Positions 2,966 through 20,268 of a stretch of 60,371 nucleotides of DNA are shown here, piece by piece. Below the pieces are notes generated by a model, which had not been told where the DNA came from, ran no database searches, and was given only the letters and a program-made list of their open reading frames with translations. The translations under genes were made by a program, and so were the position numbers. Source of the DNA: a virus (lineage: Duplodnaviria > Caudoviricetes); the IMG/VR virus record IMGVR_UViG_3300026484_000003, positions 1 to 60,371 of that record, one strand, 5' to 3'. Position 1 is the first letter of the stretch. Each line of letters begins with the position of its first letter.

Positions 2966-3010
2966 AAGGGGGTTCGCCGCCCCTTACCATTCTCTTTTCT
3001 TTTTTCGTTT
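2966..3010 (+). terminator. Possible intrinsic terminator
   Basis: AAGGGG/CCCCTT stem right after the stop, with a T-rich tract nearby, between convergent operons. Confidence 0.4.
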
Positions 3011-3118
3011 TACTTTCAAATACATATAGTAGTTATAGAAGTACCTGAGATGGTTAATTGAATAGGAATTAAACTGTGTTAATTAACAAACAAATAACGC
3101 CGTTTGTGGCTAAACGGT

Positions 3119-3310
3119 TTAAAGAGTAGTATAGATATTCGCTCTCCTTGATGCCATATCTTTCGGCATACCGCTTTCGATTATGAAGTCTTTGCTCATC
3201 CTGTATAGGTACTCATAGACTTCTCTGTATGTTTTAGGTGTTTTCCCCATAGGGTTCTCTATCCTTCTGACATAAGGGCTGATGCAATGATCTCCCTTCC
3301 TCTGCTTCAT
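3119..3310 (-). CDS. Hypothetical protein (possibly truncated)
   Basis: ATGA overlap with the methyltransferase stop. Confidence 0.5.
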   Translation of the reverse strand: MKQRKGDHCISPYVRRIENPMGKTPKTYREVYEYLYRMSKDFIIESGMPKDMASRRANIYTTL

Positions 3311-4512
3311 TCACAAAATCCTAATAGATTGTTTTTTTGCGGTTTTTTAGTTTTTTCTATCTGCTGAAATATCATCTCAACCACATTCACACTCATTGAG
3401 TTTCCTGCCTGTTTGTACGCCTGCGTATTAGAAACTACAATTTTAAAATCGTCAGGAAAATCTTGCAGTCTTAGGCATTCACGCGGTGTTAGTTTTCGTA
3501 TGCGTTCTTGGCCGCATTGTGTATCAAGTGCCTGAGGCACATTCCCACCAACTCTTCCTCTTCTTGTGTTTGAGGTAGGCATAGACGAGTTGATGTCGCC
3601 GATGCACGCTTCTTCGTGTCCGTGCCTTGTTGCTGATCTTACTTGTATCTTAGGTTCTCTGTTCCCACCTCCGCAAGTCTGCATGGCTGGTGCTATGCCA
3701 TCGGTTCCGTATACTCTTCGTATTTGATCGTTTCCTTTTGTGTCAAGAATCCCGACGACTTCAATGTAGTTATCCTGTCTCCCCATTTTGTGTACTCTCG
3801 CCGTTATCGCTGCTGCACTACTGTCAATGTTTGCGCATTTTGCAGGCTTGAATTGCAGATCTTTCCCAGATGCTGTGAAGAATAGCGTTTTTATGAGCTT
3901 GTGGCTAAGGAAATATTTCTCATCAACATCATCCTCAAGAACATCGGCAAGCTTCTTTTTGAGAGGCAACTTTTCAGGAAAATTAAACCTAAAATACCTT
4001 TCGCTACAAAGAAAACCAACAAGGAACAATCTCTCCCTGTTTTGTGGGACACCATAGTCTTTAGTGTTCACCACTCCATAGTGGCAATGGTATCCGATGT
4101 CACGAAGTGCCTGTGCGAACTCTTTTATTGTTCTACCGTTGTCGATGCTTAGAATGCCTTTTACATTCTCGTATACAATCACTTCTGGGCGACACTCATC
4201 CACCACTCTGATATACTCATAGATCAGTCCTCCGCGTTCATCTTTTGTCCCCTTTCTTAGCCCTGCAATACTGAACGACTGGCAAGGGCTTCCGCCTATC
4301 AGCATATCAACCTTTCCACGATACCGTGTCGCGTCAAGATCATTCACATCTATGTGGAAATGATCCTCGTCAATATTGTAGTTTGCCAAGTAGCTCTCCC
4401 GTGCGAATTTATCGAACTCGCACGCAAAAACGATCTCAAAGTCATCTCCGTAAACTCTTCTTGCCGCTTGTTCTGGCGCACCGATACCACTGAATAGTGT
4501 TGCTACCCTCAT
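3307..4512 (-). CDS. DNA (cytosine-5)-methyltransferase, orphan
   Basis: Motifs LFSGIG (I), GGSPCQSFS (IV), ENVKG (VI), PQNRER (VIII), RKLTPRE (IX), YKQAGNS (X). Confidence 0.97.
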   Translation of the reverse strand: MRVATLFSGIGAPEQAARRVYGDDFEIVFACEFDKFARESYLANYNIDEDHFHIDVNDLDATRYRGKVDMLIGGSPCQSFSIAGLRKGTKDERGGLIYEYIRVVDECRPEVIVYENVKGILSIDNGRTIKEFAQALRDIGYHCHYGVVNTKDYGVPQNRERLFLVGFLCSERYFRFNFPEKLPLKKKLADVLEDDVDEKYFLSHKLIKTLFFTASGKDLQFKPAKCANIDSSAAAITARVHKMGRQDNYIEVVGILDTKGNDQIRRVYGTDGIAPAMQTCGGGNREPKIQVRSATRHGHEEACIGDINSSMPTSNTRRGRVGGNVPQALDTQCGQERIRKLTPRECLRLQDFPDDFKIVVSNTQAYKQAGNSMSVNVVEMIFQQIEKTKKPQKNNLLGFCE

Positions 4513-4607
4513 TCTTGCACCTCCAAATCAACAATAACCATGTGTTCCATCGCCTGTGTTTCATATGCTTCCATTTTTACCATCCTTTAATATTAAATAT
4601 TCCGAAT

Positions 4608-4655
4608 GGTAACATTATTACCCTTAGTATAAAATATTAAGGTAATAATTTTACC
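4608..4655. promoter_or_regulatory. Two palindromic operators GGTAA-N5-TTACC overlapping the leftward promoter of the methyltransferase operon
   Basis: GGTAACATTATTACC (4608-4622) and GGTAATAATTTTACC (4641-4655). Confidence 0.8.
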
Positions 4656-4675
4656 CATTAGCATATATTTTGTTG

Positions 4676-5050
4676 CTATGCGTGCCTAAAGTAGCCGTTG
4701 ATTGTATCGCCTATCTCTTCTATTGTGAAATAGTTGAGTGCTTCCGTGACAAGTGGATTTCCATATTCAATCAAGTCTCCTGACTGCTCTTGTCCTACGA
4801 TGAAGTGTACGGCAAGTATTTTTGCTTCATCTGCCGTAAGTGATCTGCCAAACACCTGTTTTTCTGCCTGTGATGTTTCTCCGACTACAAGCTTTTCATA
4901 GAGCACTCCAAATCTCTCTTTTGGATCTCCGTACTTACTTATGTGTAGGATGAGTTGATCGTTATCGACCTCCTCATCCCTAATCTGTAGCTTCTCGTTT
5001 TTAAGAAGCCCTTCTATGTCGTGTCTCCACTCACCCGTAACAAGTATCAT
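4676..5050 (-). CDS. Hypothetical protein coupled to the darB-like gene (same position as P1 ulx)
   Basis: ATGA overlap with the darB-like stop. The identity is from position only. Confidence 0.6.
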   Translation of the reverse strand: MILVTGEWRHDIEGLLKNEKLQIRDEEVDNDQLILHISKYGDPKERFGVLYEKLVVGETSQAEKQVFGRSLTADEAKILAVHFIVGQEQSGDLIEYGNPLVTEALNYFTIEEIGDTINGYFRHA

Positions 5051-8000
5051 GCTAGCCCTTCTTTTTGTAAATTTTCTTCAATCATTGTACCAAGTTTTTT
5101 AAACTTTTCAAAATTCTCTTCACCTAGGTATTCCTTGTAGCCATCCATTGTCATTGCATCGGTTATATCGTTTTTGTATGTTGATATCTTCTTGAGCCTT
5201 GCGGAAGGACTAAAACCGTATGGGTAAATGTAGTTACTTCGGTAGATATTCTCTCCCCTACCTACAAAAACATAACTTTCATCAAGCAGATCATAGAGTT
5301 TGCCTTTAATCATAACAATCCTATCAAAGTTCTCAACAATGTCCTTTTCACTTAGACCGTTTTTGATCTCATCTGAAATTGTTTTTGAGTAGGTTACTAT
5401 CTTCTTTCTTATTGTTTCATCAATGCTGTTAATGTTTGCAAGATCATCTTTATAGTCTTGCCTACCTTTCTCAATAGCACCATGCACAATCTGTTCAACA
5501 TTTGAGTTTTCACTAATTCTTAAATCTCCTGTCAAAATGCGTCCAAGTTTTTCTGTGAAACCTACTTGATCTTTTTTGAGATTGATAATAGCATTGAGCA
5601 TTTTTTTTGCATTGGTCTTGTATGCATCAATGTCTATAGCGGTATTTCCAAATGAAACAAGATACTCTGATTGCTTAATAAGTAAGATTGAGTTAATGAC
5701 ATTCCTTACCGCCACATCTCCACTAACTACAAAATCATCACTAAGTACGGACGGAAGTGCATATCTAATCTTATGATTGACATCGTATACACTTTCTCCG
5801 TATCTTTTTATTGCCAAACGCTGAAAATAGTAAACACTATCTTTTTCGTGATCATACTTGCTTTTTATATTGTCGTTGATTGATTCTCTTAGTGTTTCAG
5901 ACATAATATCGCTTATTTCTGCCTCTTTTTTCTTCTGCTCCTCATGCTTTGCCTTAATATACATTTCTATTTTCTGCTCAACCGTAAGGTCTATTCTGTC
6001 ACCAAACATGACTTCTGCACCACGCGTAATACTTTCAATATCAGATGTATCTACTTTTGCCTCATCGTCACCTTTCTTGACTGCATCAATCCAGTCTTGC
6101 TTCCCATTGATTAGCTGATCGAGGAAGTTATCAAAAGTTCCGTTTTGAAGATACTTATAGACATGAACTTTATCAATAGTGTTTCCTTGCCTTACCGCCC
6201 TTCCCATTGCCTGATGATTTGCATCTGGTGTCTCCGGTAGTTCCATAAGGTGTACTGCTGAAACATCCTTGTTAAAGTCAACCCCCACTTCTCCTGCTTT
6301 ACCAAAGATCATTACCGTCACTTTATTGTCTTGAGAGTTAAACTTTGTTTGAAGATCAAAACCTTTGTCTCCCCCCTTAAAGTAGAACACCTTAGATACC
6401 TCTTTCACTGTGTGTTCAATAAGGTTTCCAATAATGATATGGGATATAAGTGATCTTGAGTAGATAATTTGTTTTGACGTCGGTTTACGCTTGATCTCTT
6501 TTTTCATGTTCTCGATAAGCGTTTGGTATTTTGTGAACTTTTTAATGTCAAATGCCACATCTTTTTTGCCTATAAAACCTGCTTTTTTAAGAGCTGAAAT
6601 AGCCTTAGCCAATACCTTGTCATCTTTTGTTGGAAGATATACTGTTTTGCCTCTCATTGGAGGTCTTGTTGCTTCTGGATGAAGCTTCGTGATTAGTTTA
6701 TTGAGTGGTGTCCTCCATATGTCAGAAAACTTAACTTCCGTTTTAGTATCTATCTCAAGCATACCTGTCTGGTGGTTTAATGAACCCGTTTTAACCTTAA
6801 TTTTAATATTTTCATCAAGTACCGATATTACGGCTTCCTGATCTGTTGTGTTCACCTCTATTGGAACATACCCAAGTCCAACATCAATACCTTGCCCTAA
6901 GCCTCTTGCTTTGCTGATAAATCCGAACATTTCACCAAACTCTTTGGCTAACATTAGCGATGCTACATCATCTTCATTAAGGTCTCCAAGTTCGCCTTTG
7001 TTAAGGTCTCTAACAACTGCCGAATACTTCTCATTCAGCCCACCAAGCATTTTAAAGTTTTCCTTAATGTCTGTTGTTGCTTCAAGATATGCGTTATGCT
7101 TAGAATAGTCCGGCTTTACATTGATTGTATATCCATTCTCTAATGCTCTTGCCTGTTCCTGCTCTGCTGTCCTATAGATAATCTTGTTGTGTCCTATCTT
7201 TTTGAGTAACTTGATATTTTTCAAACCAACCAGTATTTCTTTTTGTGTCATCCCCATACCGTTGGCTTTAACCACCGTCTCCTCTGAAATATCAAAGAAC
7301 ATATCTTCAAACTCTTCCGTGCTTGAAATTCCGTTGCTTTTTAATGTTGATAATGGCGTAGTAAACAGTAGTCCTGTAAGTATTTCGGATGGGCTTGAAG
7401 TCTCCGGTGTAGCTGTCATAAGGATAGTTCCTTTTGAGTCTCCACGCTTGATCGTTTTGATATATTCAGAGAAAAACATCATGCGTGATTTTGTGGATGA
7501 TTTGGCATTGTTTATTCCTTTTGCAGACGACTTTCCTGCTGTTGCGTTCTTGAAATGATGCCCCTCATCAATAATCATCGCATCTACTCCTAAATCCTCA
7601 AGGAAATATGTTGCATTTTTGCCCCAAGATGCAGATGTGATACCAAATTTGTTTAGAGGTGTCGTATTTGTTCGATAGTTTTCATCACCTCCATTCTCCT
7701 CTTTTTTATCCTTGCCTATAAGATAGTCTGTATCCTCATCTGTGAGCTTAATAAACTCTATAGCGGTGCTGTCTGCTATGAGTAGCATTTTATACTTTCT
7801 GCTACGCATAAGCTCCGAAAGATCAGTTTTGTTTTTTGTGTTTACGGTAAGTATTTTTCCCCTCATATCCTCCGTTACTGCCTTCTCAAGCTCTGCAACC
7901 CACTTTGGATATACGGCGTTAGGCACTACAAGCATTGGACGCTTTGCCTTTCCATTGTGGATCATTTGCAAACACGCCATAATGGCTGTAAACGATTTTC

Positions 8001-10506
8001 CAAGTCCGGTATCTTGAGCAATTACTCCTCCTAATTCATTTGCAAACTTGCGTGCATCTGCATTTTGATAGTGTCTCCCCTTCTTGATGATGTCTGATCT
8101 AAGCATACCTTTTAGTTCTGTCTGCTGATCTTCGTTGTACCCATCTTTTGTGTGGTATGTTATGGTTGCTTGAGACTCAAAGTGACTTAATATCTCTTCT
8201 CGATAGTTTGGATTTGACAAAATTTCATTCGTGACAATATTTGAGAACACGGTTTGGTATCTGGAAATTACCGATAAAGCAACACCCTTCAACTGTGATA
8301 CAATCATGGATATATTTTTGCTTTCGGGTAAATATCCGCTCAAACCCCATTCTAAATCTTTGTCGAAATATGTCTTGTTTGACTCTCCACCACTTTGAGA
8401 CACAACAACTCTGTACCAATTGTATTTCATAATTCTACTGTAGCCATCATCCCCGCTGATGCCGTCTATTTTAAGCTCTGAAATTCCATCAATAATGGCT
8501 TTTTCAATTTTTCCTTTCAGTAGCTTATTCTTATAGATAACATCATATAGATCAACATACATTTTAGAATTGATTTTTCTCACAAACTTCAATGAAAATT
8601 TTACATTTTCAATAGGCATTACATCCTTGTATGCCTCCACCGTTTTTTGTTGCTGTTCAATCTTTTTCTGTAGCAGGTCTTTTGGTAGAATTGAGCCATC
8701 AATCATAGATACCTCGTCAAAAACCTTATCGAACGGTTGCTTGTCAACCATTGTTAGGTATCCGTCTTTTGACATAACCTTGCTTCCGGCAATGATAACA
8801 GAATCACTCATAAGCTCATCATCTGAAAAATCATTTTTGTCATAGTGTGGGTAGTATTCATTCTCTTTTGTGATTTGCTTTTTCCCGACAAAAACCTGCT
8901 CTTCCGAGTTCTCAAGCAGTTCGCTTATGTCCTCGACAATTTCGCCGGTAGAAAGATCAATCCTGTTGATCCATCCAAGCATTTTCACAAACAAGGTGTT
9001 ATGCAGTTTGTCTTTATGTTTATCGAGTTTGCTATCTTTTTTCCTAATCAGTTCTATGTCTGATTTATACTCTAAAATCTTCTCTTTTGAGTATGGGTGC
9101 GTAAGAAGTAAATACCGTAGTGCTTCTGAAAGAGATTTATTGTCGAGTATGATTTTCTGGGCATAGAGCAACTGCTCATCATCTTGTGATAGGCGAATTG
9201 ATAATTTATGCTTGTTACTAATCATCTGCTCAAAGTCTGCTTTGCTTTTTTGCTTTTTAACAAGCCTGTCTTTGATGAATGACAATTCTGCCGTCAGTTC
9301 ACTTCTTGTTGATGTTTCAAGTTCAATATAGTTTATCGCATCGCTTGATACTTCTCCATTCCCTGCAATAACATCACGATAGTCGAATGTATTGCTGTAT
9401 TTTGCAGTATTGTGAAGTAGCTCTTTCTTGATATCATCAAGGCTTTTCCCTTCCGGCAACACAACTGTATCACGCTGTGCCATGTGGTGTAGCTTTTCTC
9501 CCTTTTCTTCTGCTTCACGGTGCATCTCTTCTTTTGATTTGAAGCTACCAAGTACCGCTTTTTTGTTCAGGTCAAAATATGTTCCATCAAGAAATTGTGA
9601 GCTGTGTTGATCTTCATGGATACGCTCATTAAATAGCTTCCAGTCTATGTTGTCATTCTTGATTGCTAATGTAACATCAAGCGGGTGTTTCTCAAACACA
9701 AGAATATCTACTACTTGCTCCGTGCCAGTATCTTTAAACATTGCACTCGGTAGCCTTACGCCACCCACAAAGCTACCCTTTTGTAGCATTTTAAGCCTTG
9801 TTGCTTTACGGTCTTTGCCTTTACGCTGTACTGTTGATGATGTGGTTAGGAATACCGCCCTTTTGTTTGGCTTGAGCAGATCAAGAGATTTGAGAATAAA
9901 GTAGTCCTCATTTCTAAGAACATCAGGCATATCTATCTTTTTATACTTTTCACCCCTTACCCCAAACGGAACATTGGTAATGACTGCATCAAAGGAGTTG
10001 TCGCTAAGCGAGTGTGAAAACTCCTCAAAGCTAACCCCCGCCTGAATTTCAGAGTTATCATTGAGTATGTCTGCTATCTTCGCAGAGGTCTTATTTAGGT
10101 CGCATCCAATGATCTGCACTCCATTTGGTGCTTGGCTTGAGAACGCTCCTGCACCGGTGCATGGATCTAAAATTTTATCGCCGTGTTTAACATCAAGAAA
10201 ATTCCAACTTGCCCTTGCAACGCTCTGTGGCGTGAAATATTCGTCATTGTCACCACCGACTGCACCACCGAAACCGGTATATTGCCTAAGTACCTCTTTC
10301 TCCTCCGATGTGTAGAATGATTTGTTTTGAGAGATTATCTGTTTTGCTTTCTGGTTAATCTCTTGTCGCTCTTTAATGTTGGTTACAATTTTGTCCGCCT
10401 CTGCAACATTGAGAAGAACACTGTATGTTGCTATCTTTCTATCAGCAACCCCATTCCCAGATGATCGTTTTTGATTTACAACTTGATCGTATAAATGTCG
10501 TATCAA
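5047..10506 (-). CDS. darB: DarB-like virion protein: N6-adenine methyltransferase fused to an SNF2-type helicase
   Basis: LRQYTGFGG...EYFTP, ILDPCTGAG, NVPF; helicase motifs AQDTGLGKS, IIDEGH, MTATP, QAMGRAVRQGN; 1819 aa. Confidence 0.88.
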   Translation of the reverse strand: MIRHLYDQVVNQKRSSGNGVADRKIATYSVLLNVAEADKIVTNIKERQEINQKAKQIISQNKSFYTSEEKEVLRQYTGFGGAVGGDNDEYFTPQSVARASWNFLDVKHGDKILDPCTGAGAFSSQAPNGVQIIGCDLNKTSAKIADILNDNSEIQAGVSFEEFSHSLSDNSFDAVITNVPFGVRGEKYKKIDMPDVLRNEDYFILKSLDLLKPNKRAVFLTTSSTVQRKGKDRKATRLKMLQKGSFVGGVRLPSAMFKDTGTEQVVDILVFEKHPLDVTLAIKNDNIDWKLFNERIHEDQHSSQFLDGTYFDLNKKAVLGSFKSKEEMHREAEEKGEKLHHMAQRDTVVLPEGKSLDDIKKELLHNTAKYSNTFDYRDVIAGNGEVSSDAINYIELETSTRSELTAELSFIKDRLVKKQKSKADFEQMISNKHKLSIRLSQDDEQLLYAQKIILDNKSLSEALRYLLLTHPYSKEKILEYKSDIELIRKKDSKLDKHKDKLHNTLFVKMLGWINRIDLSTGEIVEDISELLENSEEQVFVGKKQITKENEYYPHYDKNDFSDDELMSDSVIIAGSKVMSKDGYLTMVDKQPFDKVFDEVSMIDGSILPKDLLQKKIEQQQKTVEAYKDVMPIENVKFSLKFVRKINSKMYVDLYDVIYKNKLLKGKIEKAIIDGISELKIDGISGDDGYSRIMKYNWYRVVVSQSGGESNKTYFDKDLEWGLSGYLPESKNISMIVSQLKGVALSVISRYQTVFSNIVTNEILSNPNYREEILSHFESQATITYHTKDGYNEDQQTELKGMLRSDIIKKGRHYQNADARKFANELGGVIAQDTGLGKSFTAIMACLQMIHNGKAKRPMLVVPNAVYPKWVAELEKAVTEDMRGKILTVNTKNKTDLSELMRSRKYKMLLIADSTAIEFIKLTDEDTDYLIGKDKKEENGGDENYRTNTTPLNKFGITSASWGKNATYFLEDLGVDAMIIDEGHHFKNATAGKSSAKGINNAKSSTKSRMMFFSEYIKTIKRGDSKGTILMTATPETSSPSEILTGLLFTTPLSTLKSNGISSTEEFEDMFFDISEETVVKANGMGMTQKEILVGLKNIKLLKKIGHNKIIYRTAEQEQARALENGYTINVKPDYSKHNAYLEATTDIKENFKMLGGLNEKYSAVVRDLNKGELGDLNEDDVASLMLAKEFGEMFGFISKARGLGQGIDVGLGYVPIEVNTTDQEAVISVLDENIKIKVKTGSLNHQTGMLEIDTKTEVKFSDIWRTPLNKLITKLHPEATRPPMRGKTVYLPTKDDKVLAKAISALKKAGFIGKKDVAFDIKKFTKYQTLIENMKKEIKRKPTSKQIIYSRSLISHIIIGNLIEHTVKEVSKVFYFKGGDKGFDLQTKFNSQDNKVTVMIFGKAGEVGVDFNKDVSAVHLMELPETPDANHQAMGRAVRQGNTIDKVHVYKYLQNGTFDNFLDQLINGKQDWIDAVKKGDDEAKVDTSDIESITRGAEVMFGDRIDLTVEQKIEMYIKAKHEEQKKKEAEISDIMSETLRESINDNIKSKYDHEKDSVYYFQRLAIKRYGESVYDVNHKIRYALPSVLSDDFVVSGDVAVRNVINSILLIKQSEYLVSFGNTAIDIDAYKTNAKKMLNAIINLKKDQVGFTEKLGRILTGDLRISENSNVEQIVHGAIEKGRQDYKDDLANINSIDETIRKKIVTYSKTISDEIKNGLSEKDIVENFDRIVMIKGKLYDLLDESYVFVGRGENIYRSNYIYPYGFSPSARLKKISTYKNDITDAMTMDGYKEYLGEENFEKFKKLGTMIEENLQKEGLA

Positions 10507-10527
10507 GGAATACCCCTTTTTAGTTTT

Positions 10528-10558
10528 ATTGTAGTCTAAAAAGAGGTCTTTTTTTCAA
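10528..10558 (-). promoter_or_regulatory. Putative late promoter TTGAAA-N19-TACAAT (darB-like gene)
   Basis: Same architecture upstream of five other structural operons. Confidence 0.65.
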
Positions 10559-10562
10559 ACGC

Positions 10563-12899
10563 TTATGCTGTCTTTCCTATGTGTGCCGTACTAAGCCTGT
10601 CAAGTTTTCTGGAAAGTTGTGCAAAATCAATTTTGTACCACTCTCCATCATTTGAATACCCGTCTTGATAGTTTCTGTGATATATTTTTTCTGCTTCTTG
10701 CTTGTTTTTTGCCCCAAGAATAAATTTATCCTCATCAAAAGTTCCATTATTTCGTAACTGCTTGATATAGAAAACTGGTCTCTGCTCCATTTGCTTCACT
10801 GTTGCCTCATGCGATAAGAAAACATCTACCTCGTCACCGTCAGCACCGTGCGTTCCATCAAAATAACCATAGTCGTCTTGTAGTTCACTTTCCCATTCTG
10901 TACCGTTATCGTCAATCCCGTTCCTAAATGTTCCACGCTCTGACTCTATCGTGATAGCTATTCCTCCGATAGTGATCTTTTTGTCAGGCAATAGGACACT
11001 GTTTTCAATAGAATCAAAAACTGTTGTTCCATTCAACAGGAATTGTGCAAGTTCGGCTTCGGTCTTTGTAACCGCATAAGCATTTGATACGCTCCCCGTA
11101 CTTGCATCGTATTGAACCATTGACCACTCAGACTTATCAACATTTCTACCAAGTTTGCTATTGTATTCTTTCCACTCTGAATATTCTGGCTTGTAGCCCT
11201 CATTGCAGAGCTTCTCAATGAAGTCCTTTTTCTCCATAACTTCACCATCGTATCCAATTAGATTAGATAAGACTTTTTTAGCCCTTCCCCTTCTCATCGG
11301 CGTTAATGTATTGAGATAGTGGTGTGCTATGCCCTCTTCTTCCTTCTCCTCTTCTTTGCGTGCAAGTTCGGCTTCAATCTCTTTTGCTTTTGCCAATTCA
11401 CGCTCACGCTCACGCTCCTGTTCTCTTTTTACTTTTCTTTCCATATCATCCCTGATCTCATCTTCACTTGGCATCGTAATTGGCATAATGACTGTTTTTG
11501 TTCCATCTTCTGCCGTTATAATAAACGGGAGTGTAGGCTCATCCATTTCAAAGGTGATCTCTTTGCTATCTCCTATTGCATCTAAGACATATTTTGAAGC
11601 AAACCCGATACTCTTATTGCCCATGTTGCTTTTTGTCTCTATTTTGCCTATGTTGATCGTTTTAACGGTTGGGTGCATAGTATCTTCGCCTTCAACATGA
11701 TATGTTGAAACATTAATGTTGTTATCAGAGAATGCGAAGCGTACTTCATCGGCTTTTCTAAGTATTGCTTCTAGTTCTTTTGTATTGATTTTTACGGAGG
11801 GCTTAGGATACATAGGTACAACTCTTTGATAGTCTGGGAAACGCCCTACTATTCTATGTGCCGTGTGTTTGTAGTCTTTTGTTTCCGTATATGTTACTGA
11901 CTTACCATCTGACGCTTCCCCTATTTTGATGATCTCAATATCTTTATCAACCACATTTTTTTGAATGATATACTGCCCATCTTTACCAGTGACCTTAAAC
12001 GGTTTTGAGATAGTCAGTCGCCTTGTATTAGTTCCTACTGCTTTTGCCTCTCCGTTTTCAGCGTCAATCAATATCCCGTTCAGTTCAAATTTTGGGTTGT
12101 TTTTGTCTGATGCTTTCTGTGTCGTAAGTAACGATTTAAGCATGCTTTGAGTGATTTTAATAGTAAGGTCTGCATTGCTTAATTCAAGGGCTTTACCTGC
12201 AATGTCGTAAGTTGTTTTTATCCCTCCGTCAGTGTCTCTAAATTCACCATTATCATTAATGTAAATTTCACCCGTTACTGATTTTAGATCATAGGCTTTC
12301 ATTCCGTTAATGTCCGGTATATCAAGTTTCTCTTTTGTGATCAGCGTCCGGTCAGCATCGGTTATCTTGAGTTCTCCATTTTTGATAGATATGTATGTGG
12401 TGTCGAGTTCTCTCTCTGTAGCACCAAAAAACTTGATAAACTTCTTGATTTTACTTACCGTATCTTTGCCTATTATCTTGCTGTAAGGCAATGGCTTTGC
12501 CGTTGCTTCTTTTGATGATTTTATAATGGTCGGGATCATATTTTTTACCGCTTCCTTAAATTGATCCATTGGATTGGCATCTACTTCTGCACCAATAGCA
12601 TAAGCTCCAAGATCAGGCACAACAACATACCAATACCCTTTTTGCGGAATAATGTAAACAGTTCCGACCTCTTCGGTTTCAAGCTTTCCTTTTGCACTTG
12701 CCAATCTAAAGATAGCGATATGATCTGGGTTGAGCATATTTCGCACTCTTACATATCCTTTGGGTGTTTCTTGATTTCGTAATTTATATTCTGCTGTTTT
12801 TTTGTCTCTTTCTGCCTTTATGTCTGCAAGAATTTCTTTTTTACCGCCCATAGCGGTCATTTTAACCTTGACCGCTTTTTCAAATAGTTTTTTAATCAT
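10563..12899 (-). CDS. Polyvalent internal-head protein: beta-clamp-like domain + coiled coil + DarA_C-like domain + InPase-type pyrophosphatase domain
   Basis: Clamp motifs NNPKFELNGILID, GTNTRRL, GRFPDYQRVVP, IGFASKYVLD, TVIMPI. DarA_C-like KKDFIEKL...VTKTEAELA. InPase ITIESERGTFRNG...DYGYF.GTHGADGDEVDVF...FDEDKFILG. Confidence 0.8.
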   Translation of the reverse strand: MIKKLFEKAVKVKMTAMGGKKEILADIKAERDKKTAEYKLRNQETPKGYVRVRNMLNPDHIAIFRLASAKGKLETEEVGTVYIIPQKGYWYVVVPDLGAYAIGAEVDANPMDQFKEAVKNMIPTIIKSSKEATAKPLPYSKIIGKDTVSKIKKFIKFFGATERELDTTYISIKNGELKITDADRTLITKEKLDIPDINGMKAYDLKSVTGEIYINDNGEFRDTDGGIKTTYDIAGKALELSNADLTIKITQSMLKSLLTTQKASDKNNPKFELNGILIDAENGEAKAVGTNTRRLTISKPFKVTGKDGQYIIQKNVVDKDIEIIKIGEASDGKSVTYTETKDYKHTAHRIVGRFPDYQRVVPMYPKPSVKINTKELEAILRKADEVRFAFSDNNINVSTYHVEGEDTMHPTVKTINIGKIETKSNMGNKSIGFASKYVLDAIGDSKEITFEMDEPTLPFIITAEDGTKTVIMPITMPSEDEIRDDMERKVKREQERERERELAKAKEIEAELARKEEEKEEEGIAHHYLNTLTPMRRGRAKKVLSNLIGYDGEVMEKKDFIEKLCNEGYKPEYSEWKEYNSKLGRNVDKSEWSMVQYDASTGSVSNAYAVTKTEAELAQFLLNGTTVFDSIENSVLLPDKKITIGGIAITIESERGTFRNGIDDNGTEWESELQDDYGYFDGTHGADGDEVDVFLSHEATVKQMEQRPVFYIKQLRNNGTFDEDKFILGAKNKQEAEKIYHRNYQDGYSNDGEWYKIDFAQLSRKLDRLSTAHIGKTA

Positions 12900-12935
12900 C
12901 TTACACGTCCACCCATTCCTGAATAATAAAACACA

Positions 12936-14129
12936 TTACTTCTCCCCCTTCCGGTAAGAAAAATCACCGTTAATAGGCTTGATGATCTCTTTCCCAAGCC
13001 TGATCTCAAAGTCCGGTAACTCTTTCAGTTCCTTACCATCAACGGAGATAGTAATGTGTGGCTTGTAGCTGTCATAATCCCATGTAGCACCGAGACGTTT
13101 CGCCCTATTGTATCTGGCTGTAAGTTTTTTGGACTCAACAAAGAGGACTAAAACTTTTTCTTTTCCAAGAATACCGCTTCCAGTGATCTTGTCAATAATG
13201 ATTTCATCATCTTTAGGCTCTAAATCAACCTTCTTTTTTGAATATACGATTGTGATATGTGGATCTTCTACGGGTACAAGACCTTGAGCCTTCACCCACT
13301 CTTTCAACTGCTTTGCATTGACTACTTTCCGACTTACATAAGTTCCGGTTTCTACTGCATCAAGTTCTAGGTTTGCTTCTTTGAGTTTTTTTACCGCCCC
13401 CTTCCATGCCTGATATGTTTTAAATTCACGCTCTTTTTTCTTTACTGCGTCCATATTCGCACCAAACAAGCCTCCACCATCAATGCTGTCGTTTTTTACT
13501 TCACCCTCACCTGCAATTTCAGATAGTATATTGATTACCTCACTGTAGAGTTCGTGATCCCCAAGTTTGTCCTCATTTGCTTCGATAAGGTCAACTTGTG
13601 GCTCAATGCTCTCCCAGTCCTCAATGGTTGCATCATCGTTTGTGATAATGTCCTTTATCTCTTCCATTGCGTAGGTTAGCTTTGTGATGAGTTGATCATC
13701 TGGTTCTGTTGTTTCGAGGTCGTGGCTTTCGAGTGCTTCTAATACTTTTTTCTTTGTGAACTCTTTTGCTTTGCTTTCGAGATATTCACTAATAAGTGCA
13801 TGAGCAGTCTGAACATTGGATTGTCTTGTTACCATAGTCGGAGCTTCATCTAAGTATCTTTGCACTAACTCTTCTGCAAGTGTAAAGTCTGTAAATGTTT
13901 CAAGCTTCTCCGTATCTTTAATTCTGGTTAAATTCATAGCAAGTTGGCTTGACTGTGTTGTGATCTCACTTTTGCTTAACTTCTCTCCGTCACCGCCAAG
14001 TTTTATATATAGCCCTTTGATTGCCTTCTGGATTTCCCTCTTTGCCTTAAAGCCCTTTTCGGCTTCAAGTTCTGCGTACTTTGCTTTGATCTCTTTTTGG
14101 ATAGCTCTTTTTTCTTTAAACCCCAACAT
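12936..14129 (-). CDS. Internal-head protein with a C-terminal Acb1-like 2H phosphoesterase
   Basis: Two HxT motifs (PHITIVYS, YKPHITIS) with YVSRKVVNA and GATWDYDSY context, as recalled for T4 57B/Acb1 relatives. Confidence 0.8.
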   Translation of the reverse strand: MLGFKEKRAIQKEIKAKYAELEAEKGFKAKREIQKAIKGLYIKLGGDGEKLSKSEITTQSSQLAMNLTRIKDTEKLETFTDFTLAEELVQRYLDEAPTMVTRQSNVQTAHALISEYLESKAKEFTKKKVLEALESHDLETTEPDDQLITKLTYAMEEIKDIITNDDATIEDWESIEPQVDLIEANEDKLGDHELYSEVINILSEIAGEGEVKNDSIDGGGLFGANMDAVKKKEREFKTYQAWKGAVKKLKEANLELDAVETGTYVSRKVVNAKQLKEWVKAQGLVPVEDPHITIVYSKKKVDLEPKDDEIIIDKITGSGILGKEKVLVLFVESKKLTARYNRAKRLGATWDYDSYKPHITISVDGKELKELPDFEIRLGKEIIKPINGDFSYRKGEK

Positions 14130-16639
14130 TATTCATTCTCCGATTTCATAAGTGCTGTAAGCTGATCGGCTAATCTGTTTAGCTCATCTTCATATTTATC
14201 CATCAAGCCTTTTTCTTCAATGAGTTCTGCGACTTCATCAAGTTTTTTTTCAAATCTTTGTGAGTCGGGTTGCTCTGCCACCTGCTGCAGGAAGCCATCT
14301 ATCATGTGGTTATCATCTTCTGTTTTTGTCTGGTTCTCATGTAAGAAGCTCATAGCACCCTTGATGATGCCACTCATAGCGTCTTTGTGTTTCACCATAT
14401 CCCAAAGTGCAAGAATTTCTCTGGCATCATATTTGTCTGCATCTGCTACATTATACATAACCCCACCGTGACTATCTTTGATGATCTGCTTGTAAACTTC
14501 GTTTTCTTTTATTCTGGCTTCGAGTTCTTGATCTGTAAGATCATTGCTCTCTGGAACTTCATCCCCATTACCCCCCTTGATCTCACTAAGTGTCTGCTTG
14601 GTGTAATAGAAGTCCAACTCTACACCAAGACGGGTAAGTTCCTCAGTGTTGACATACCCAAGTTCTGCCATTTCACGATCACCGTTCAAGATAGCATAAC
14701 CATAAGCATCTGATGGGCTGTTCGCTTCTGTAATGTACCAGTCACTCCCACCACTAAAGTAGTGAAGTTGTACCTGTACGCTGTCGCCTTCACCGTCTTT
14801 TTCATATAACTTTGGTAGATTTGTAATTGTTTCGTAAAGATCATTCACAACATCGCTAAACTCATAATCTTCACTACCGATATTTTGGCTTAGGATTGAG
14901 TATTGGGCTTCGCTCATAAAGCCTTTGATTGCTTCGAGTTTGCCTTTTGTGGATAGTTGCTTATTTTCTTCCCACGCATCCTGCTTCTCAAGTATCTCCA
15001 TCGCTTTATCCACAATGAGGTTTGATACTGACAACATTTTCATATCATCAATTCTATCAACCTCTTTTTCTACCATTTTTCTAACATCCTCTTTCGAGTA
15101 TGTTTTGTCTGGATACATATCTCCAAGCACTTTGCTTGAAATTGGCAATGCGTACCGACCGATTTTCTCTGCCGGATCTCCTGCTCTTTTTTGCTCACCT
15201 TTTAGTTCCAAATGTCTAACCTCAATAGTTCCTTTCTTCACATTCCCGTAAATGCCAACCACTGATGCACGCCCATCTTCACCGTATGCAACAAATTGTT
15301 GTGCTGTGCCTACCATATCCCATCTATCTGCTTCGATAAGTGCTTTCTGCTCGCCCAGTGAAAGTTCTCCAAAGTTTCTAATAATGTCAATGTTTTTATT
15401 CAGTAGGTCTGTGCTGTTTACTGCATCTCTGTCATAATCGAACATATCATCATCTTCTCTCTGCTTATCCTTAGCCAACTCTTCATTGATCTTCTCGATA
15501 ATAACTTTTCTCGGTCTATTTGTAGATAGCCATCTCTCTTTTACGCTCCACCCCTCTTTCTCTCCAATAGGTAGATACAGAACGCTTCCTCTTCCATCTT
15601 CACCTACTGAAAATTCCTTCTCTGCTGTAATGAATGAAGCGTACTGATGATGATCTACTTCATAATCAAGTTCGGTTTTTTCTTTAATAAATTCAGCATT
15701 ACGGATAAGATCAACTGACGGCATTTCTACACCACTTTTATCTTCAATCTTGTCCGCACCTATTGTAATAAAATGGATCACTTTTTTCATGTGTGTTATG
15801 ATTGATTTTTCTACACCTTCAATGGATACTTCTTTTTTGTCGATTGCGTCCAGTGTTGTACCGCCTACAGTAAATGAGTAGTTAATGCCTCCTTTCAGCT
15901 TCTCATCTTTTGCAAATGCTTCGCGTATTGCAGTGATGTATTTTTCTGATCCAGTAGGCAGGTTGATCGTGTAGGTGTTCTCTTTGATGTCATTGATGAT
16001 CTTATTGGCTTCCGTAACAACATCACTCAAGTCAAGCTTCATGCCGTCAATCTCTTTTTCAAGTTTTTTGATCTTTAACTCATCATCATCAATATTGTTT
16101 GCAACAAACTTCCTGTGCGATGCCTCAATGATCTTTTTCAGTCTTGCTACTGTAAGCGCTGTATCAATGTCAGTGTCTCCGTTTTTGTAGATACCTTTTG
16201 TAATGTCCTTGTTGTTTAGCATGAAGTGTGTAATAATCACATCTTTGTTTGGTTTATAGTTCTTAAAATCCTTGATATTTCTTGCAAGGACTGTAAGAAT
16301 TTGCCCATCGTCAAACTCAAGTGTGAATGGTTGATATTTTGTTTTTTCACCCTTTCCTACGCCAGATACATTGAAGCCATAATGCACCGTAAATACATTA
16401 TCGTCTGCATGAACTTTGTCGTGTAGTTTTTGAGATAGCTTCTTAGCCACTTTGTTTACTTCCTTCCAAAGCAACTGTTGGTTTTCAGATGTGATCGCAT
16501 CCATAGCAACACTGCTGTCGCCAAAAGGATAGTTCATGTCAAGCTCTAAAAGCCTACTTGCTAAATTGTCTGATTTCTGGAAAATGAGTCCATCCAAAAA
16601 CAGTTCATCTCTTACTTCTTGAAATTCTCTTTGTGTCAT
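14129..16639 (-). CDS. darA: DarA-like internal head protein (DarA_N + DUF2958-like domain)
   Basis: FDDGQILTVL...FMLNNKDIT...VARLKKIIEASHRKF (DarA_N-like). LPKLYE...LHYFSGGSDWYITE...AELGYV...VELDFYY (DUF2958-like). Confidence 0.75.
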   Translation of the reverse strand: MTQREFQEVRDELFLDGLIFQKSDNLASRLLELDMNYPFGDSSVAMDAITSENQQLLWKEVNKVAKKLSQKLHDKVHADDNVFTVHYGFNVSGVGKGEKTKYQPFTLEFDDGQILTVLARNIKDFKNYKPNKDVIITHFMLNNKDITKGIYKNGDTDIDTALTVARLKKIIEASHRKFVANNIDDDELKIKKLEKEIDGMKLDLSDVVTEANKIINDIKENTYTINLPTGSEKYITAIREAFAKDEKLKGGINYSFTVGGTTLDAIDKKEVSIEGVEKSIITHMKKVIHFITIGADKIEDKSGVEMPSVDLIRNAEFIKEKTELDYEVDHHQYASFITAEKEFSVGEDGRGSVLYLPIGEKEGWSVKERWLSTNRPRKVIIEKINEELAKDKQREDDDMFDYDRDAVNSTDLLNKNIDIIRNFGELSLGEQKALIEADRWDMVGTAQQFVAYGEDGRASVVGIYGNVKKGTIEVRHLELKGEQKRAGDPAEKIGRYALPISSKVLGDMYPDKTYSKEDVRKMVEKEVDRIDDMKMLSVSNLIVDKAMEILEKQDAWEENKQLSTKGKLEAIKGFMSEAQYSILSQNIGSEDYEFSDVVNDLYETITNLPKLYEKDGEGDSVQVQLHYFSGGSDWYITEANSPSDAYGYAILNGDREMAELGYVNTEELTRLGVELDFYYTKQTLSEIKGGNGDEVPESNDLTDQELEARIKENEVYKQIIKDSHGGVMYNVADADKYDAREILALWDMVKHKDAMSGIIKGAMSFLHENQTKTEDDNHMIDGFLQQVAEQPDSQRFEKKLDEVAELIEEKGLMDKYEDELNRLADQLTALMKSENE

Positions 16640-16642
16640 TTT

Positions 16643-17266
16643 TTAAACCCTTACTGTTTTGTAGTTGTCTTTGATGTCGTCTGCCGACTCCTGATCGTCA
16701 AATGTTACGATTTCGCTTTGCTTCTTAGTCCATCCGTTTCTGCCGTAGAACTCACCCTCTTTATTGAGTACGATAAATTTACCGCTTCCTTTTTGAAGGT
16801 CTTGTTTCAATGCTGTAAGTCTGGATAGTGTCAATTCCTGATCTTCATCGTCACCCAGTTGGTCGATCACCTTATTCATATCCGCTTTGCTTACCTTGAC
16901 TTTCATTTCTGCCTTTTGTTCTCTTCGGATAGTCCTTACTACTTCTCTTCCAAGCGTTGCAGGGGAGACCTTTACTCCTGTTTCGTCTTTACTGATTGAC
17001 TCAATAATTTTGTCTTTTTCTCTTTGCGTATCAACAACAACACGTGCTACATTACCGCCTTTTTCAACAAACAGAAGAATGTCGCCAAATTCCAGTTCAA
17101 GGTCATAGATGATTGCCTGTCTTTTTGTGGTTGGTGTTCTGTAGATTCTGTGATCGTTGTCGTGGACTCCGATAATTGGAATGTTATGTAAGTTTTTTTC
17201 TATCTCTTTGTAGAGTTTTGAAGATCTCACCTCTTGAGGTGTCATTATTTGTTTAGGAAATTGCAT
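16643..17266 (-). CDS. Probable Hdf-like head protein, first gene of the dar operon
   Basis: Immediately upstream of darA, as hdf is in P1. Sequence resemblance is weak. Confidence 0.4.
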   Translation of the reverse strand: MQFPKQIMTPQEVRSSKLYKEIEKNLHNIPIIGVHDNDHRIYRTPTTKRQAIIYDLELEFGDILLFVEKGGNVARVVVDTQREKDKIIESISKDETGVKVSPATLGREVVRTIRREQKAEMKVKVSKADMNKVIDQLGDDEDQELTLSRLTALKQDLQKGSGKFIVLNKEGEFYGRNGWTKKQSEIVTFDDQESADDIKDNYKTVRV

Positions 17267-17293
17267 AAGTAGCCCTTTAAATATTTTACATCT

Positions 17294-17324
17294 ATTGTAT
17301 CAATTTAGATGGTGTAAAATTCAA
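17294..17324 (-). promoter_or_regulatory. Putative late promoter TTGAAT-N19-TACAAT (dar operon)
   Basis: Shared architecture with the other late promoters. Confidence 0.65.
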
Positions 17325-17327
17325 AAC

Positions 17328-17855
17328 CTAAAGGTAGGCTCCTATCTTTGATTTAATGTCGAGTGCATTATCTTTTTCCTTGTTTGGGCTGTCTGCACTT
17401 GACCCGCTTGAAGGCGTACTGTCTGCAACCGATTGTGCAAGATCAGCCATTAACTGAACTAAGTTTGTTGCATCATTCCTGATATTTACCTTTTTGCTCC
17501 AAATGTCAACCTGATTTGCAGATTTTTCGGATGTTCCGGCATTGTCTCCGTTCGCACCCATTATTTTTATGATGTTGTTGCCATATATTTGCACTTCACT
17601 GTTTTCAATTCTTGAAATTCCACTCTTGATAAGTGAAATTCCTTGAGATAGTGAAGAGAGTGCATAAACAACGCCATAATCATCTTCAACAAGCAATACT
17701 TCTGTTCCGATTTTTATGTTTGGCTGTTGTTCTCTCTCATCTAAGTTCAACGGGCTACATTTAACAACATGGTCTATAACTTGATCTGTGTTGTATAGCT
17801 TTACTGTCAAGAACCTATCTTGAACAGACACAACCGTTCCAACTCTAATGTTCAT
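17328..17855 (-). CDS. Probable baseplate spike (gpV/gp5-like)
   Basis: N-terminal OB-like IRVGTVVSV...IKIGTEVLL followed by beta-rich repeats; follows a hub-sized gene. Confidence 0.6.
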   Translation of the reverse strand: MNIRVGTVVSVQDRFLTVKLYNTDQVIDHVVKCSPLNLDEREQQPNIKIGTEVLLVEDDYGVVYALSSLSQGISLIKSGISRIENSEVQIYGNNIIKIMGANGDNAGTSEKSANQVDIWSKKVNIRNDATNLVQLMADLAQSVADSTPSSGSSADSPNKEKDNALDIKSKIGAYL

Positions 17856-18660
17856 CTGGTATCTCCCCAAGTGTTATAACTGTCTTTACTTTGCTTTTGA
17901 TGTAGATTGTATTTTTCTCCATTACGCAGTATTTTATTTCTTTGTGCGTTATCCCTGCCCCGATATTGATGGTTATATTTTCGTGCGTTGCCTGAATAAT
18001 ATACTTTGGATCAAGCAGGGTATTTAAACCGTTGATCTCATTCTTTGAAATTGCCGGTATATAGTATGGTCTCCCGCTTCCTCTTTTGGTGTTGGCTTTC
18101 GTACCGTCACCCTCTATTGAAGCATAGTTCTTTCTGCTTCTCATTGAATGGATTTTCTTTTCAATCTCTGGCTCTGCAATATACTTCTCGTCATCGCCTT
18201 CATATTCTTTAGAATGTCTTTGTATGATCTTGAAATTTTCGTCAATGGCTAAGGTAAGCCCTTTTTTTCTAAGCTCGAATATTGCTATCTGTAATTGATT
18301 TTTACCACCAATGATGTATTTTTTAAGGCTTATCCCCCATACATGATCTTCCGGCTTATAGAGGTTGTATTTTAAATTGTAGCTTTCTTTGTGCATGAAA
18401 ATATACGCCGTATCAATCTGATTTGTAATTGTGTTTGGGTGTGGGTTTATTTCAGACAGTGTAAGTTCTATGGTTTTACCATATGCTGTTACAATCGTGT
18501 ATGTTTCATCAATGATAAGTTTTTCGGCGTCTATTCTGTGTTCAATCGCCCCAAGTTCTACAATAAATGGGATGTCATAAATATATCCATTTACATAGGC
18601 ATAGGTAATGTCTTTCGCAGATAGTATGTCCGTACCGTCTTTTGCGACTGCAATTACCAT
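17845..18660 (-). CDS. Probable baseplate hub protein
   Basis: Size and position before the spike-like gene. Confidence 0.4.
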   Translation of the reverse strand: MVIAVAKDGTDILSAKDITYAYVNGYIYDIPFIVELGAIEHRIDAEKLIIDETYTIVTAYGKTIELTLSEINPHPNTITNQIDTAYIFMHKESYNLKYNLYKPEDHVWGISLKKYIIGGKNQLQIAIFELRKKGLTLAIDENFKIIQRHSKEYEGDDEKYIAEPEIEKKIHSMRSRKNYASIEGDGTKANTKRGSGRPYYIPAISKNEINGLNTLLDPKYIIQATHENITINIGAGITHKEIKYCVMEKNTIYIKSKVKTVITLGEIPDEH

Positions 18661-18669
18661 TTTCTACCT

Positions 18670-19374
18670 CTATTTGTGGTGGTTTTCAATATCAAATTTG
18701 ACAATGTATTTTTTCATCACATTAACGCCGTCACGCAGCATAAAGAACTGCTCCCTGATCTTAAAATCAATAGCGAGTGTAACTATTCCGCTTTCCTGTG
18801 CGCTTGACTCCGAAAATGAAGCAGATTTCACCCCTACAAGTCGAATATGTCCGTAATCATGCAATACATGGTTTTGACCTGTTTCCTTGTCCTGTAGGAG
18901 TACCTTGTAGTTTATTCTCTCATTGTTTGCCAGAATGTTCAGCGTATGCAACGCTATCTCTTTTGAAGCATACTGTGATCTTGTCAAAACAACAATCTGA
19001 ACAGGAGTTTCGTATGTGAACATTTGCCCTGAAAGTGTAAGTTTGTCTGTTTCATCTTCGACATTTACGATTGTAATAATATCCTGCATCTGAAATTTTT
19101 TTACATTTCTTCCAAATGATGATGGGTCTATCGCATTGGACTGTGCAACTATGATTTGTGGCAATAACTCCATAGGATTGTCGCTCTTATTGTTAAGTGA
19201 TGTAATCAGCCTCTCAAGATCATCGGATAGGCTTTTTCTGGTGATTGAAACAATGTCTCTTTCACATAGATCAAGCTCATCATATCCAGTAGCATTTGGT
19301 ATCTTTTTGATCTTGTCGTTTAGCAACTTAGCAAAAGTTTTGATGCTTGTGTCGTGATTATGTACCAATAGCAA
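18670..19374 (-). CDS. Probable tail completion/terminator-type structural protein
   Basis: LLPQIIVA...YETPVQIVVLTRS pattern; late operon context. Confidence 0.4.
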   Translation of the reverse strand: MLLVHNHDTSIKTFAKLLNDKIKKIPNATGYDELDLCERDIVSITRKSLSDDLERLITSLNNKSDNPMELLPQIIVAQSNAIDPSSFGRNVKKFQMQDIITIVNVEDETDKLTLSGQMFTYETPVQIVVLTRSQYASKEIALHTLNILANNERINYKVLLQDKETGQNHVLHDYGHIRLVGVKSASFSESSAQESGIVTLAIDFKIREQFFMLRDGVNVMKKYIVKFDIENHHK

Positions 19375-19378
19375 CTTA

Positions 19379-19636
19379 TTATCCTATTGGCAGAAATTCG
19401 TAGTTGAAGCGACTGTCACGCAGTATATAGATGTCACCTCTTCCAGTATCTATAATTTCATTTTGCAACACTTGTTCACCGCTTAAAACAGAGGGTGGCT
19501 CTTCGGTTGTTGTGTACCCTGCTTCTGCCTGAAAACCAACATTTTTGAATTGTGTAAAATCTTCTGTGCTGATCTTCATCCACTCCTTTGTAGTTCCATC
19601 AACTTTTGGTATTTTGATTGTTTCTTGCGTATCCAT
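19379..19636 (-). CDS. Hypothetical structural protein
   Basis: AAAGG RBS; first gene after a late-like promoter (TTGATT-N18-TAAAAT). Confidence 0.55.
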   Translation of the reverse strand: MDTQETIKIPKVDGTTKEWMKISTEDFTQFKNVGFQAEAGYTTTEEPPSVLSGEQVLQNEIIDTGRGDIYILRDSRFNYEFLPIG

Positions 19637-19685
19637 AAGTTACCTTTATGTTTTTGCCTATTTTAGCGGTTTTGTGCAAAAAAAA

Positions 19686-20246: not shown

Positions 20247-20268
20247 TGTTTTTTATCTCCAAATTAAT

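Follow-up and report, generated by a model that had tools for sequence, protein, structure and literature searches.

In bacteria, replication and repair share the beta clamp as their central docking hub, and small phage proteins that bind or block it are known. What, then, is a homologue of the clamp itself doing within a phage protein that also carries a pyrophosphatase domain and lies in a probable anti-defence block? The question is raised by P0001, a protein of 778 amino acids (aa) encoded at 10563-12899 on the minus strand (as given by the open reading frame (ORF) list and its translation) in the IMG/VR virus record IMGVR_UViG_3300026484_000003. The window analysed is the whole record, a complete virus genome (estimated completeness 100%) that measures 60,371 bp and has direct terminal repeats. 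P0001 is a real gene under purifying selection (dN/dS of 0.23 over 332 codons, against L084, a relative 89% identical). It is probably a polyvalent-type cargo protein of a Dar-type block with a previously uncatalogued clamp module, and the reading that we favour, with a probability of about 0.4, is that this module acts through its peptide pocket as a look-alike of the host clamp, docking the clients of that clamp and aiming or coupling the fused pyrophosphate-cleaving enzyme. A first-pass annotation, made from the sequence alone, had described a host-like, captured clamp embedded in a head-cargo polyprotein, serving as a decoy or adaptor or pre-loaded on injected DNA. Its clamp fold and preserved cleft have stood, and head cargo is plausible in what proves to be a Dar-type setting; the polyprotein, the host-like or captured character and the pre-loaded ring are unsupported or weakened.

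A three-domain clamp inside a multidomain protein

When P0001 was compared with the PDB (phmmer, E<=1), 33 distinct sequences were matched, of which 32 were beta clamps and one was a phage portal (9b41_L, matched via the pyrophosphatase domain). The best clamp match, 7rzm_A, aligned aa 246-474 with its residues 134-372 (E 4.5e-12), and phrog_947, annotated as 'DNA polymerase processivity factor', aligned aa 253-478 with positions 135-367 of 368 (E 1.6e-18). These matches are far above chance and cover the stretch (11472-12167, that is aa 245-476 of the minus-strand ORF) for which hallmarks of DnaN domains II and III had been claimed. All the motifs quoted for it are present in the translation, among them NNPKFELNG, GTNTRRL and GRFPDYQRVVP in domain II (aa 246-365; 11805-12164, minus strand, like every part of the gene) and the C-terminal end TVIMPITM of domain III (aa 366-477; 11469-11804). 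The Pfam models of DnaN stayed below threshold (PF02767 18.8 bits and PF02768 17.6 bits, cut-off 27), and PF00712 gave no match in P0001. With aa 130-480 as query, 1.84 billion cluster representatives yielded 534 proteins at E<=1e-3, of which 37 reached E<=1e-10 and five E<=1e-30. Only one clamp-like place was found in the genome by a PF02768 search.

The diverged domain I that had been suspected around aa 150-240 proved to be real, and the clamp fold on which the first-pass annotation depended is indeed predicted. The AF2 model of aa 130-480 (149-row alignment) reached a pLDDT of 88.0 and a pTM of 0.83. Foldseek aligned it with 3pwe_A over 379 columns (E 6.9e-22, TM 0.70), and VIA matched 323 residues to a solved DnaN clamp with a Z of 26.2 (model residues 11-347 against chain residues 3-379). 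Since the model aligns solved clamps over their full length, domain I must be present at aa ~136-245 (12165-12494), strongly diverged in sequence. It resembles domain II in a profile comparison (hhalign, E 6.6e-4), and its only well conserved segment is KLDIPDINGM (aa 191-200). The predicted structure thus confirms that aa ~136-477 of P0001 hold a complete three-domain beta-clamp monomer fold.

Ahead of the clamp, a leader and an additional domain occupy about 135 aa. The leader (aa 1-17; 12849-12899), which starts MIKKLFEKAVKVKMTA, is a putative capsid-targeting or docking peptide and is retained in L084. It is followed by a variable linker, with some 75-110 additional residues in L084, P0007 and P0008, and by what we call the 'PKGY' N-domain (aa 46-135; 12495-12764), which alignments place ahead of the clamp in P0001-4, P0007-10 and P0012. 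This domain falls outside known families: it had no Pfam or PHROG match, and an Atlas search with aa 1-135 gave no usable match. The possibility that it was a fourth clamp domain was rejected, the hhalign probability against each of the three clamp domains being <1%.

Behind the clamp, the C-terminal extension that had been put at about 300 aa measures 302 aa (aa 477-778). It opens with a charged helix (aa 478-522; 11334-11468; 13 K+R and 20 D+E), probably a coiled-coil spacer, which the full-length AF2 model draws as a single long helix (H479-521) with low confidence; this model (four sequences, pLDDT 56.2) was poor, and we have used it for this helix and the rough secondary structure of the N-domain only. 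Next comes an uncatalogued helical middle domain (aa 523-639; 10983-11333), which P0007 lacks and which lies within matches to phrog_10089, 'DarB-like antirestriction' (aa 481-749), and phrog_5143 (aa 569-768). The chain closes with the InPase (PF18823) pyrophosphatase domain (aa 640-765; 10605-10982), with a Pfam E of 7.5e-33 (113.7 bits, cut-off 26.8) and an E of 9.1e-36 at the same place in a profile search of the genome. Its acidic residues D675, D687, D692, D722, E723 and D724 are invariant in all six relatives compared, from which pyrophosphatase activity is predicted. The same part of P0001 resembles the C-terminal domain of the portal mentioned above (E 2.7e-14) and matches PHROGs annotated as minor head or virion proteins. 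Neither a peptidase domain nor a cleavage site was found in P0001, which is better called a multidomain protein than a polyprotein. A T4-type LxE cleavage site in the leader (LFE) was considered and dropped, as relatives read LYA, LYV or LHA there.

Full-length homologues are few. A search of an index of 5.8 billion proteins gave only three (P0002-4, 38-43% identity), and the scan of cluster representatives added P0007 and P0008, both with clamp and InPase. The clamp module recurs in other company: behind a NUDIX domain and the N-domain in P0009, behind the N-domain in P0010 and P0012, and at the C terminus of P0034, an NCBI protein from a metagenome-assembled genome of Sulfurovaceae, following ART-PolyVal, PBECR3 and InPase. 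This makes at least four architectures.

The peptide pocket and the ring interface

A way to approach the function of the module is to compare separately the two surfaces by which clamps work, the pocket that receives the peptides of partner proteins and the interface that closes the ring. The residue lists were taken from a review (PMC11139829) and transferred by an alignment numbered on Salmonella DnaN, from which peptide binding is predicted. Subsite I of the pocket is retained at 12 of 12 positions, nine of them identical to the Escherichia coli residues. Specifically, R152, L155, T172, G174, H175, R176, L177, P242, R246, V247, V360 and M362 correspond to K, L, T, T, R, R, L, P, R, V, V and M in P0001. 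The three exchanges R152K, G174T and H175R are common to three of the four Campylobacterota-type DnaN aligned, the fourth having K at 175. Across the six clamp and InPase proteins only L/I and V/I exchanges occur in subsite I, and the pocket is conserved among proteins that are only 36-44% identical overall. Subsite II is identical to E. coli at three of eight positions (Y323, M362 and P363), and M364I is a conservative exchange common to all four Campylobacterota-type DnaN. The earlier remark that the retained motifs line the peptide-binding cleft was therefore well founded, the cleft being the best-kept part of the module.

This pattern bears on the possibility that the clamp fold itself binds nothing and survives as a structural spacer, or as a remnant in decay, in a protein of which only the InPase matters. 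The sub-threshold Pfam scores and a domain I that is barely recognizable by sequence would suit it. It conflicts with the conserved pocket, with the recurrence of the module in several architectures and with dN/dS values against L084 of 0.17 for the N-domain, 0.20 for domain I and 0.28 for domain II, and we consider it very unlikely.

According to the reading that we prefer, P0001 would be taken into the head by means of its N-terminal leader, by analogy with DarB of phage P1, and would enter the cell together with the DNA. Its pocket would then grip the short peptides by which host replication and repair proteins bind the clamp, for instance those of the alpha subunit of polymerase III, the delta subunit of the clamp loader and ligase. 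Docking might either plug the fused pyrophosphatase into host machinery that is starting on the incoming genome or keep those host proteins off their own clamp. InPase and NUDIX, the enzymes found with the module, both cut the pyrophosphate bonds of nucleotides or pyrophosphate (PPi), the substrates and the product of polymerases. The decoy or adaptor proposed in the first-pass annotation is compatible with a pocket that, as far as the alignment tells, follows the spelling of the host phylum. A soluble pocket domain and a set of candidate peptides offer a handle on how injected effectors find their targets, and could reveal which clients of the host clamp count early, within minutes of infection, in Campylobacterota, whose phages have been little studied.

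The ring interface looks different. Among the dimer-core residues of E. coli beta, I78 is preserved as I194, inside KLDIPDINGM; F106, I272 and L273 align with gaps. In E. coli, I272 and L273 sit on the first helix of domain III, which in the AF2 model of P0001 has only eight residues (aa 373-380), and another two channel helices of the model measure 3-5 residues. At R24, the nine proteins of the cassette family have I or V and the four Campylobacterota-type DnaN have K. Alignment and model thus indicate that domain I and the ring-closing interface are remodelled, and a canonical closed ring is doubtful; we do not put it more strongly because the alignment of domain I is uncertain. A homodimer prediction for two copies of aa 130-480 (149-row alignment, run without controls) gave a score of 0.00, which has no bearing either way.

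A ring is nevertheless what a second explanation calls for, in which P0001 serves as a DNA-encircling tether. Two copies, arriving as monomers at a free end of the linear genome with its terminal repeats while it is ejected or thereafter, would close around the phage DNA and would either hold the fused enzymes on the incoming DNA or shield its ends from exonucleases like ring-shaped end binders. A folded ring cannot pass the tail tube, so that the ring would have to assemble afterwards. The complete three-domain fold fits this explanation, and so do the survival of I78 in the only conserved motif of domain I, a clamp region with a pI of 7.35 (against 4.8-5.1 in three Campylobacterota-type DnaN) and the direct terminal repeats, hence free DNA ends. 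Beta is reported to bind short linear DNA without a loader (PMC11139829), and the Dar proteins of P1 to contact DNA and leave the head with it (PMC12810830). The deletion of the I272/L273 segment, the halving of the interface helix, the short channel helices of the model and the change of R24 to I all speak against a ring, and the helices of domain III carry net charges of -1 and 0 only. We regard this tether as unlikely and docking through the pocket as more likely than sliding as a closed ring on DNA; a clamp pre-loaded on the injected DNA is weakened by the same deletion and eight-residue helix.

A Dar-type block and its shared leader

By PHROG and Pfam matches the phage is a P1-like myovirus, with portal, Pro-like, large terminase, sheath, tube, PmgG-like and baseplate proteins; the Pro-like protein beside the portal belongs to phrog_1801, the label given to the pro product of P1. 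The host is probably a sulfur-oxidising member of the Campylobacterota: among the 43 large-terminase (TerL) homologues listed, all four with a name belong to Sulfurovum, Sulfurimonas or Sulfurovaceae. One of the homologues (P0182), 58% identical, is listed with a contig as long as that of the clamp protein P0034 (1,696,146 bp). As a separate observation, 11 of these 43 homologues (P0179, P0180, P0182, P0184, P0186, P0188, P0190, P0191, P0195, P0197 and P0208; 645-916 aa) have Hint/intein or homing-endonuclease Pfam domains, which the phage's own terminase (46801-48522, 573 aa) lacks.

The clamp gene lies in a run of genes on the same strand, between a DarA_N gene and an Acb1 fusion on its upstream side and a DarB-like gene downstream. 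The DarA_N protein (14129-16639, minus strand, 836 aa) matches PF18788 with an E of 7.2e-8 (32.7 bits, cut-off 27); its aa 568-687 match phrog_5203, a family of unassigned function (E 4e-19), and its homologue in L084 has an inserted segment with IKGLY. The neighbouring Acb1/2H phosphoesterase fusion (12936-14129, minus strand, 397 aa) matches PF23474 (E 1.7e-30) and shows two HITI motifs in translation, behind an N-terminal extension of about 250 aa with a leader-like IKGLY at aa 37-41; the L084 counterpart, with an insertion, has 499 aa. This arrangement suggests an anti-CBASS enzyme delivered as head cargo. The DarB-like protein (5047-10506, minus strand, 1819 aa) combines an N6-adenine methylase with a SNF2/ResIII helicase (N6_Mtase, SNF2, ResIII and Helicase_C domains; phrog_10089, E 3.2e-49). 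A second, separate DNA methyltransferase (3307-4512, minus strand, 401 aa; phrog_116, E 6.2e-88) follows downstream on the same strand. That P0001 is head cargo, as the first-pass annotation had it, is plausible by analogy, because the block is of the Dar type (DarA_N, DarB-like) and InPase is typical of virion-associated polyvalent proteins.

P0001 and its DarB-like neighbour also begin alike, with MIKKLFEKAV and MIRHLYDQVV. The motif [ILA][KR]xL[YFH] occurs six times in the 70 non-overlapping ORFs of the genome (18,013 aa), four of them within the first 45 residues: at position 2 in P0001 and in the DarB-like protein, at position 37 in the Acb1 fusion and at position 4 in a 168-aa ORF. This last ORF (51304-51810, minus strand), which begins MTKLKELFEDTF, has no PHROG match and is located in the tail and head morphogenesis block. 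A wider form, [ILVA][KRQLE]xL[YFH], appears in the first 14 residues of 9 of 11 clamp proteins with N-terminal extensions and of 4 of 20 DarB-like homologues, and in none of 43 TerL homologues or 113 stand-alone clamps. L084 keeps the first 16 residues nearly unchanged despite about 107 aa inserted before the PKGY domain; its clamp protein is encoded at 2806-4251 (plus strand), and P0007 and P0008 have insertions at the equivalent site. In P1 DarB the first 30 residues are reported to suffice for capsid targeting (PMC9024508), and the shared leader fits a signal of this kind. A second clamp group, P0011, P0014 and P0018 (451-592 aa), forms a clade of its own (SH-aLRT 100) with a different N-domain (PPIGK...) and leaders reading IKKLH, IQKLH and IESLH.

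The leader has suggested a more daring possibility, that the pocket binds the leaders of the phage's own cargo. The clamp look-alike, which would have given up ring closure and kept a host-type docking pocket, and the leaders of the DarB-like protein, the Acb1 fusion, the 168-aa protein and P0001 itself would form a self-contained tag-and-hub system that gathers the cargo for the head or, once injected, keeps it together at the incoming DNA or plugs it into the host replisome. If true, this would be a new principle for sorting and aiming injected phage effectors. Three of the four near-N-terminal motifs are in consecutive genes of the Dar block, and the last two positions of the motif (L, then F or Y) match the most important positions of clamp-binding peptides (PMC11139829). 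The gene takes the place of ddrA and ddrB in P1, where DdrB is listed as aiding the incorporation of DarB (PMC9024508). In two further cases a clamp protein and a DarB-like protein appear to share a contig, P0008 with P0226 (26,237 bp) and P0009 with P0216 (15,506 bp), judged by equal size and source only. Set against this, the motif has neither the Gln nor the aliphatic second residue of the consensus QL[SD]LF, its continuation xLYxKLL suggests an amphipathic helix rather than a peptide in extended form, only 4 of 20 DarB-like homologues have the motif, which was defined post hoc, and P1 packages DarB without any clamp. We think it rather improbable.

A more conventional role would be that of a replication clamp in the cytoplasm, loaded by the host and tethering host polymerase III, with a built-in pyrophosphatase that pulls synthesis forward and with no packaging at all. 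The phage has replication and recombination genes (a replication initiator/DnaD-like protein, RecT, two exonucleases, NinG, dUTPase and SSB). As the first-pass annotation had noted, neither a DNA polymerase nor a clamp loader was recognized, here in a PHROG scan of 44 of the 45 ORFs of at least 150 aa (the remaining one overlaps an opposite-strand gene), and the best explanation is that the phage replicates with the host polymerase. The best PHROG of the module is the processivity factor, the pocket that loader and polymerase need is intact, the block lies downstream of the replication genes on the same strand, and P0010, P0012 and P0009 end in a free clamp C terminus like DnaN. InPase has itself been proposed to clear PPi in early replication (PMC5512222). 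The gene is, however, placed between the DarA_N/Acb1 and DarB-like genes, outside the replication cluster, and the fusion partners of the module (polyvalent-type InPase, ART-PolyVal and PBECR3) are typical of injected multi-effector proteins. The leader, common to DarB-like proteins, is absent from 113 of 113 stand-alone clamps, the interface is truncated and the host already supplies a clamp. A cytoplasmic replication clamp is in our view quite unlikely. Elsewhere in the genome, the only plus-strand block (26361-30392) encodes a 458-aa protein (phrog_674, no Pfam match), RecT, an exonuclease VIII-like protein and dUTPase, and the sign of the GC skew switches there.

Pocket docking by an injected P0001 remains the reading that we prefer, and several points weigh against it. 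Packaging into the virion is argued by analogy from the gene context and the shared leader of an uncultured phage. The leader motif was defined after the data had been seen, so that its counts illustrate rather than prove, and the leader does not evidently resemble the N terminus of P1 DarB, compared over 50 residues. On its strand the Dar-like block comes after the genes for replication and recombination (NinG at 19686-20246) and not among the head genes, and a scan of 4500-22000 for promoters and terminators was at chance level for promoters (50 promoter-like sites against 46.5 expected), with no clear operon boundary. A retained pocket is ambiguous because the pocket is the most conserved part of every DnaN, and it would also be expected of a working replicative clamp. 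Subsite II is less conserved (N320A, V344T, M364I and R365T), and the chain runs on for 302 aa from the rim of the pocket, where it could hinder partners. The loss of the interface is read from the domain III deletion and the short model helix, the alignment of domain I being unreliable. Finally, titrating host proteins may take more than the tens of copies that would be injected.

Origin of the module and comparison with known systems

The first-pass annotation had recognized a Campylobacterota spelling of DnaN in NNPKFELNG and TxTRRL, and rightly so: the nearest DnaN read NNPK[FY]ELNG and TDTRRL. The top stand-alone match (P0013) in the unbiased scan of 1.84 billion representatives is 95% identical to a chromosomal DnaN of Arcobacteraceae, and other high-ranking stand-alone matches are 48-65% identical to Campylobacterota DnaN. 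A scan with the pattern NN[PS]K[FY]ELN in one genome per species, biased by that very pattern, gave at least 542 relatives among the 600 matches listed, and the best 80 of them are by title almost all Campylobacterota, with 29-34% identity. The nearest cellular relatives of the module are thus the DnaN of Campylobacterota (Arcobacteraceae, Sulfurimonadaceae and Sulfurovaceae), at about 29-34% identity over domains II-III.

'Host-like' and 'captured' are too strong for such a distance, and the phylogeny points the same way. In a quick IQ-TREE tree of 102 rows (88 from alignment A2 and 14 DnaN from the loci, with representatives numbered above P0100 omitted, as were rows that had under 225 residues in query-occupied columns), the six clamp and InPase proteins form one clade (SH-aLRT 99) outside the clade of Campylobacterota DnaN (32 rows, SH-aLRT 95). 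Both lie within an unresolved group of 75 rows that is split from the 27 other clamps at SH-aLRT 100. A recent capture from the host is not supported by these sequences, and any capture, if there was one, would be old.

Relatives of the phage itself were scarce. A metagenome scan gave, among at least 593 matches listed, mostly DnaN, one close relative (L084) and two InPase fragments, and an IMG/VR scan gave 129 pattern matches of which none was confirmed. The N-terminal 245 aa of P0001 were not found in three named Sulfurovaceae or Sulfurovum genomes or in 401 sampled Campylobacterota genomes. A search for InPase that does detect the phage's own copy came up empty in 250 Sulfurovaceae genomes. 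The portal was not found in the 401 Campylobacterota genomes at E<=1e-10, and therefore no prophage relatives were gained by that route.

Compared with bacterial DnaN (PF00712/PF02767/PF02768), P0001 has the same three-domain fold and a subsite I complete in the Campylobacterota spelling. It differs in the low identity, the Pfam thresholds that it does not reach, its own clade, the remodelled domain I and interface, the N-terminal part of about 135 aa, the C-terminal extension and the anti-defence gene block. The clamp loader and polymerase III that DnaN works with would, judging from the gene content, have to be supplied by the host.

The polyvalent proteins described by Iyer, Burroughs, Anand, de Souza and Aravind in 2017 (PMC5512222) offer a closer likeness. 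P0001 joins several unrelated modules in one phage polypeptide, among them an InPase of the phage type, its neighbours have DarA-N, 2H/Acb1 and methylase-helicase domains, and its relatives have ART-PolyVal, PBECR3 and NUDIX. In that paper InPase, DarA-N and 2H are listed as phage-type domains, InPase being a likely virion-packaged one that may aid early replication by removing PPi. P0001 differs in its small size and in the absence of a peptidase module. The main text of that paper contains none of the terms clamp, DnaN, sliding, PCNA, processivity, beta subunit, Pol III or polymerase III, its supplements being a place where more domains may be listed; the catalogue thus gains a module not found in the main text of the founding paper. 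In a survey of jumbo phages by the same group, sliding clamps are mentioned in replication only. Our literature search found no description of a clamp inside virion, antirestriction, DarB or polyvalent proteins, and the fusion of clamp and pyrophosphatase in a probable injected anti-defence block was not found in print.

The Dar system of P1 (Hdf, DarA, DdrA, DdrB, Ulx and DarB) shares with the present block a DarA_N protein and a DarB-like methylase-helicase. The P1 Dar proteins are reported to be internal to the head, to contact the DNA and to exit with it (PMC12810830). In P1 the order is hdf-darA-ddrA-ddrB, with darB elsewhere and no clamp, InPase or Acb1 module among the Dar genes, whereas here all four genes follow each other in one run and the clamp gene occupies the ddrA/ddrB place. 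Gp168 of phage Twort and MuC of phage Mu are cases in which a phage targets the same hub (PMC11139829; PMC12867686). Both are small proteins that bind the host clamp; P0001 is itself a clamp homologue, and by bringing one of its own, within an anti-defence protein that is probably injected, the phage would be following a different strategy.

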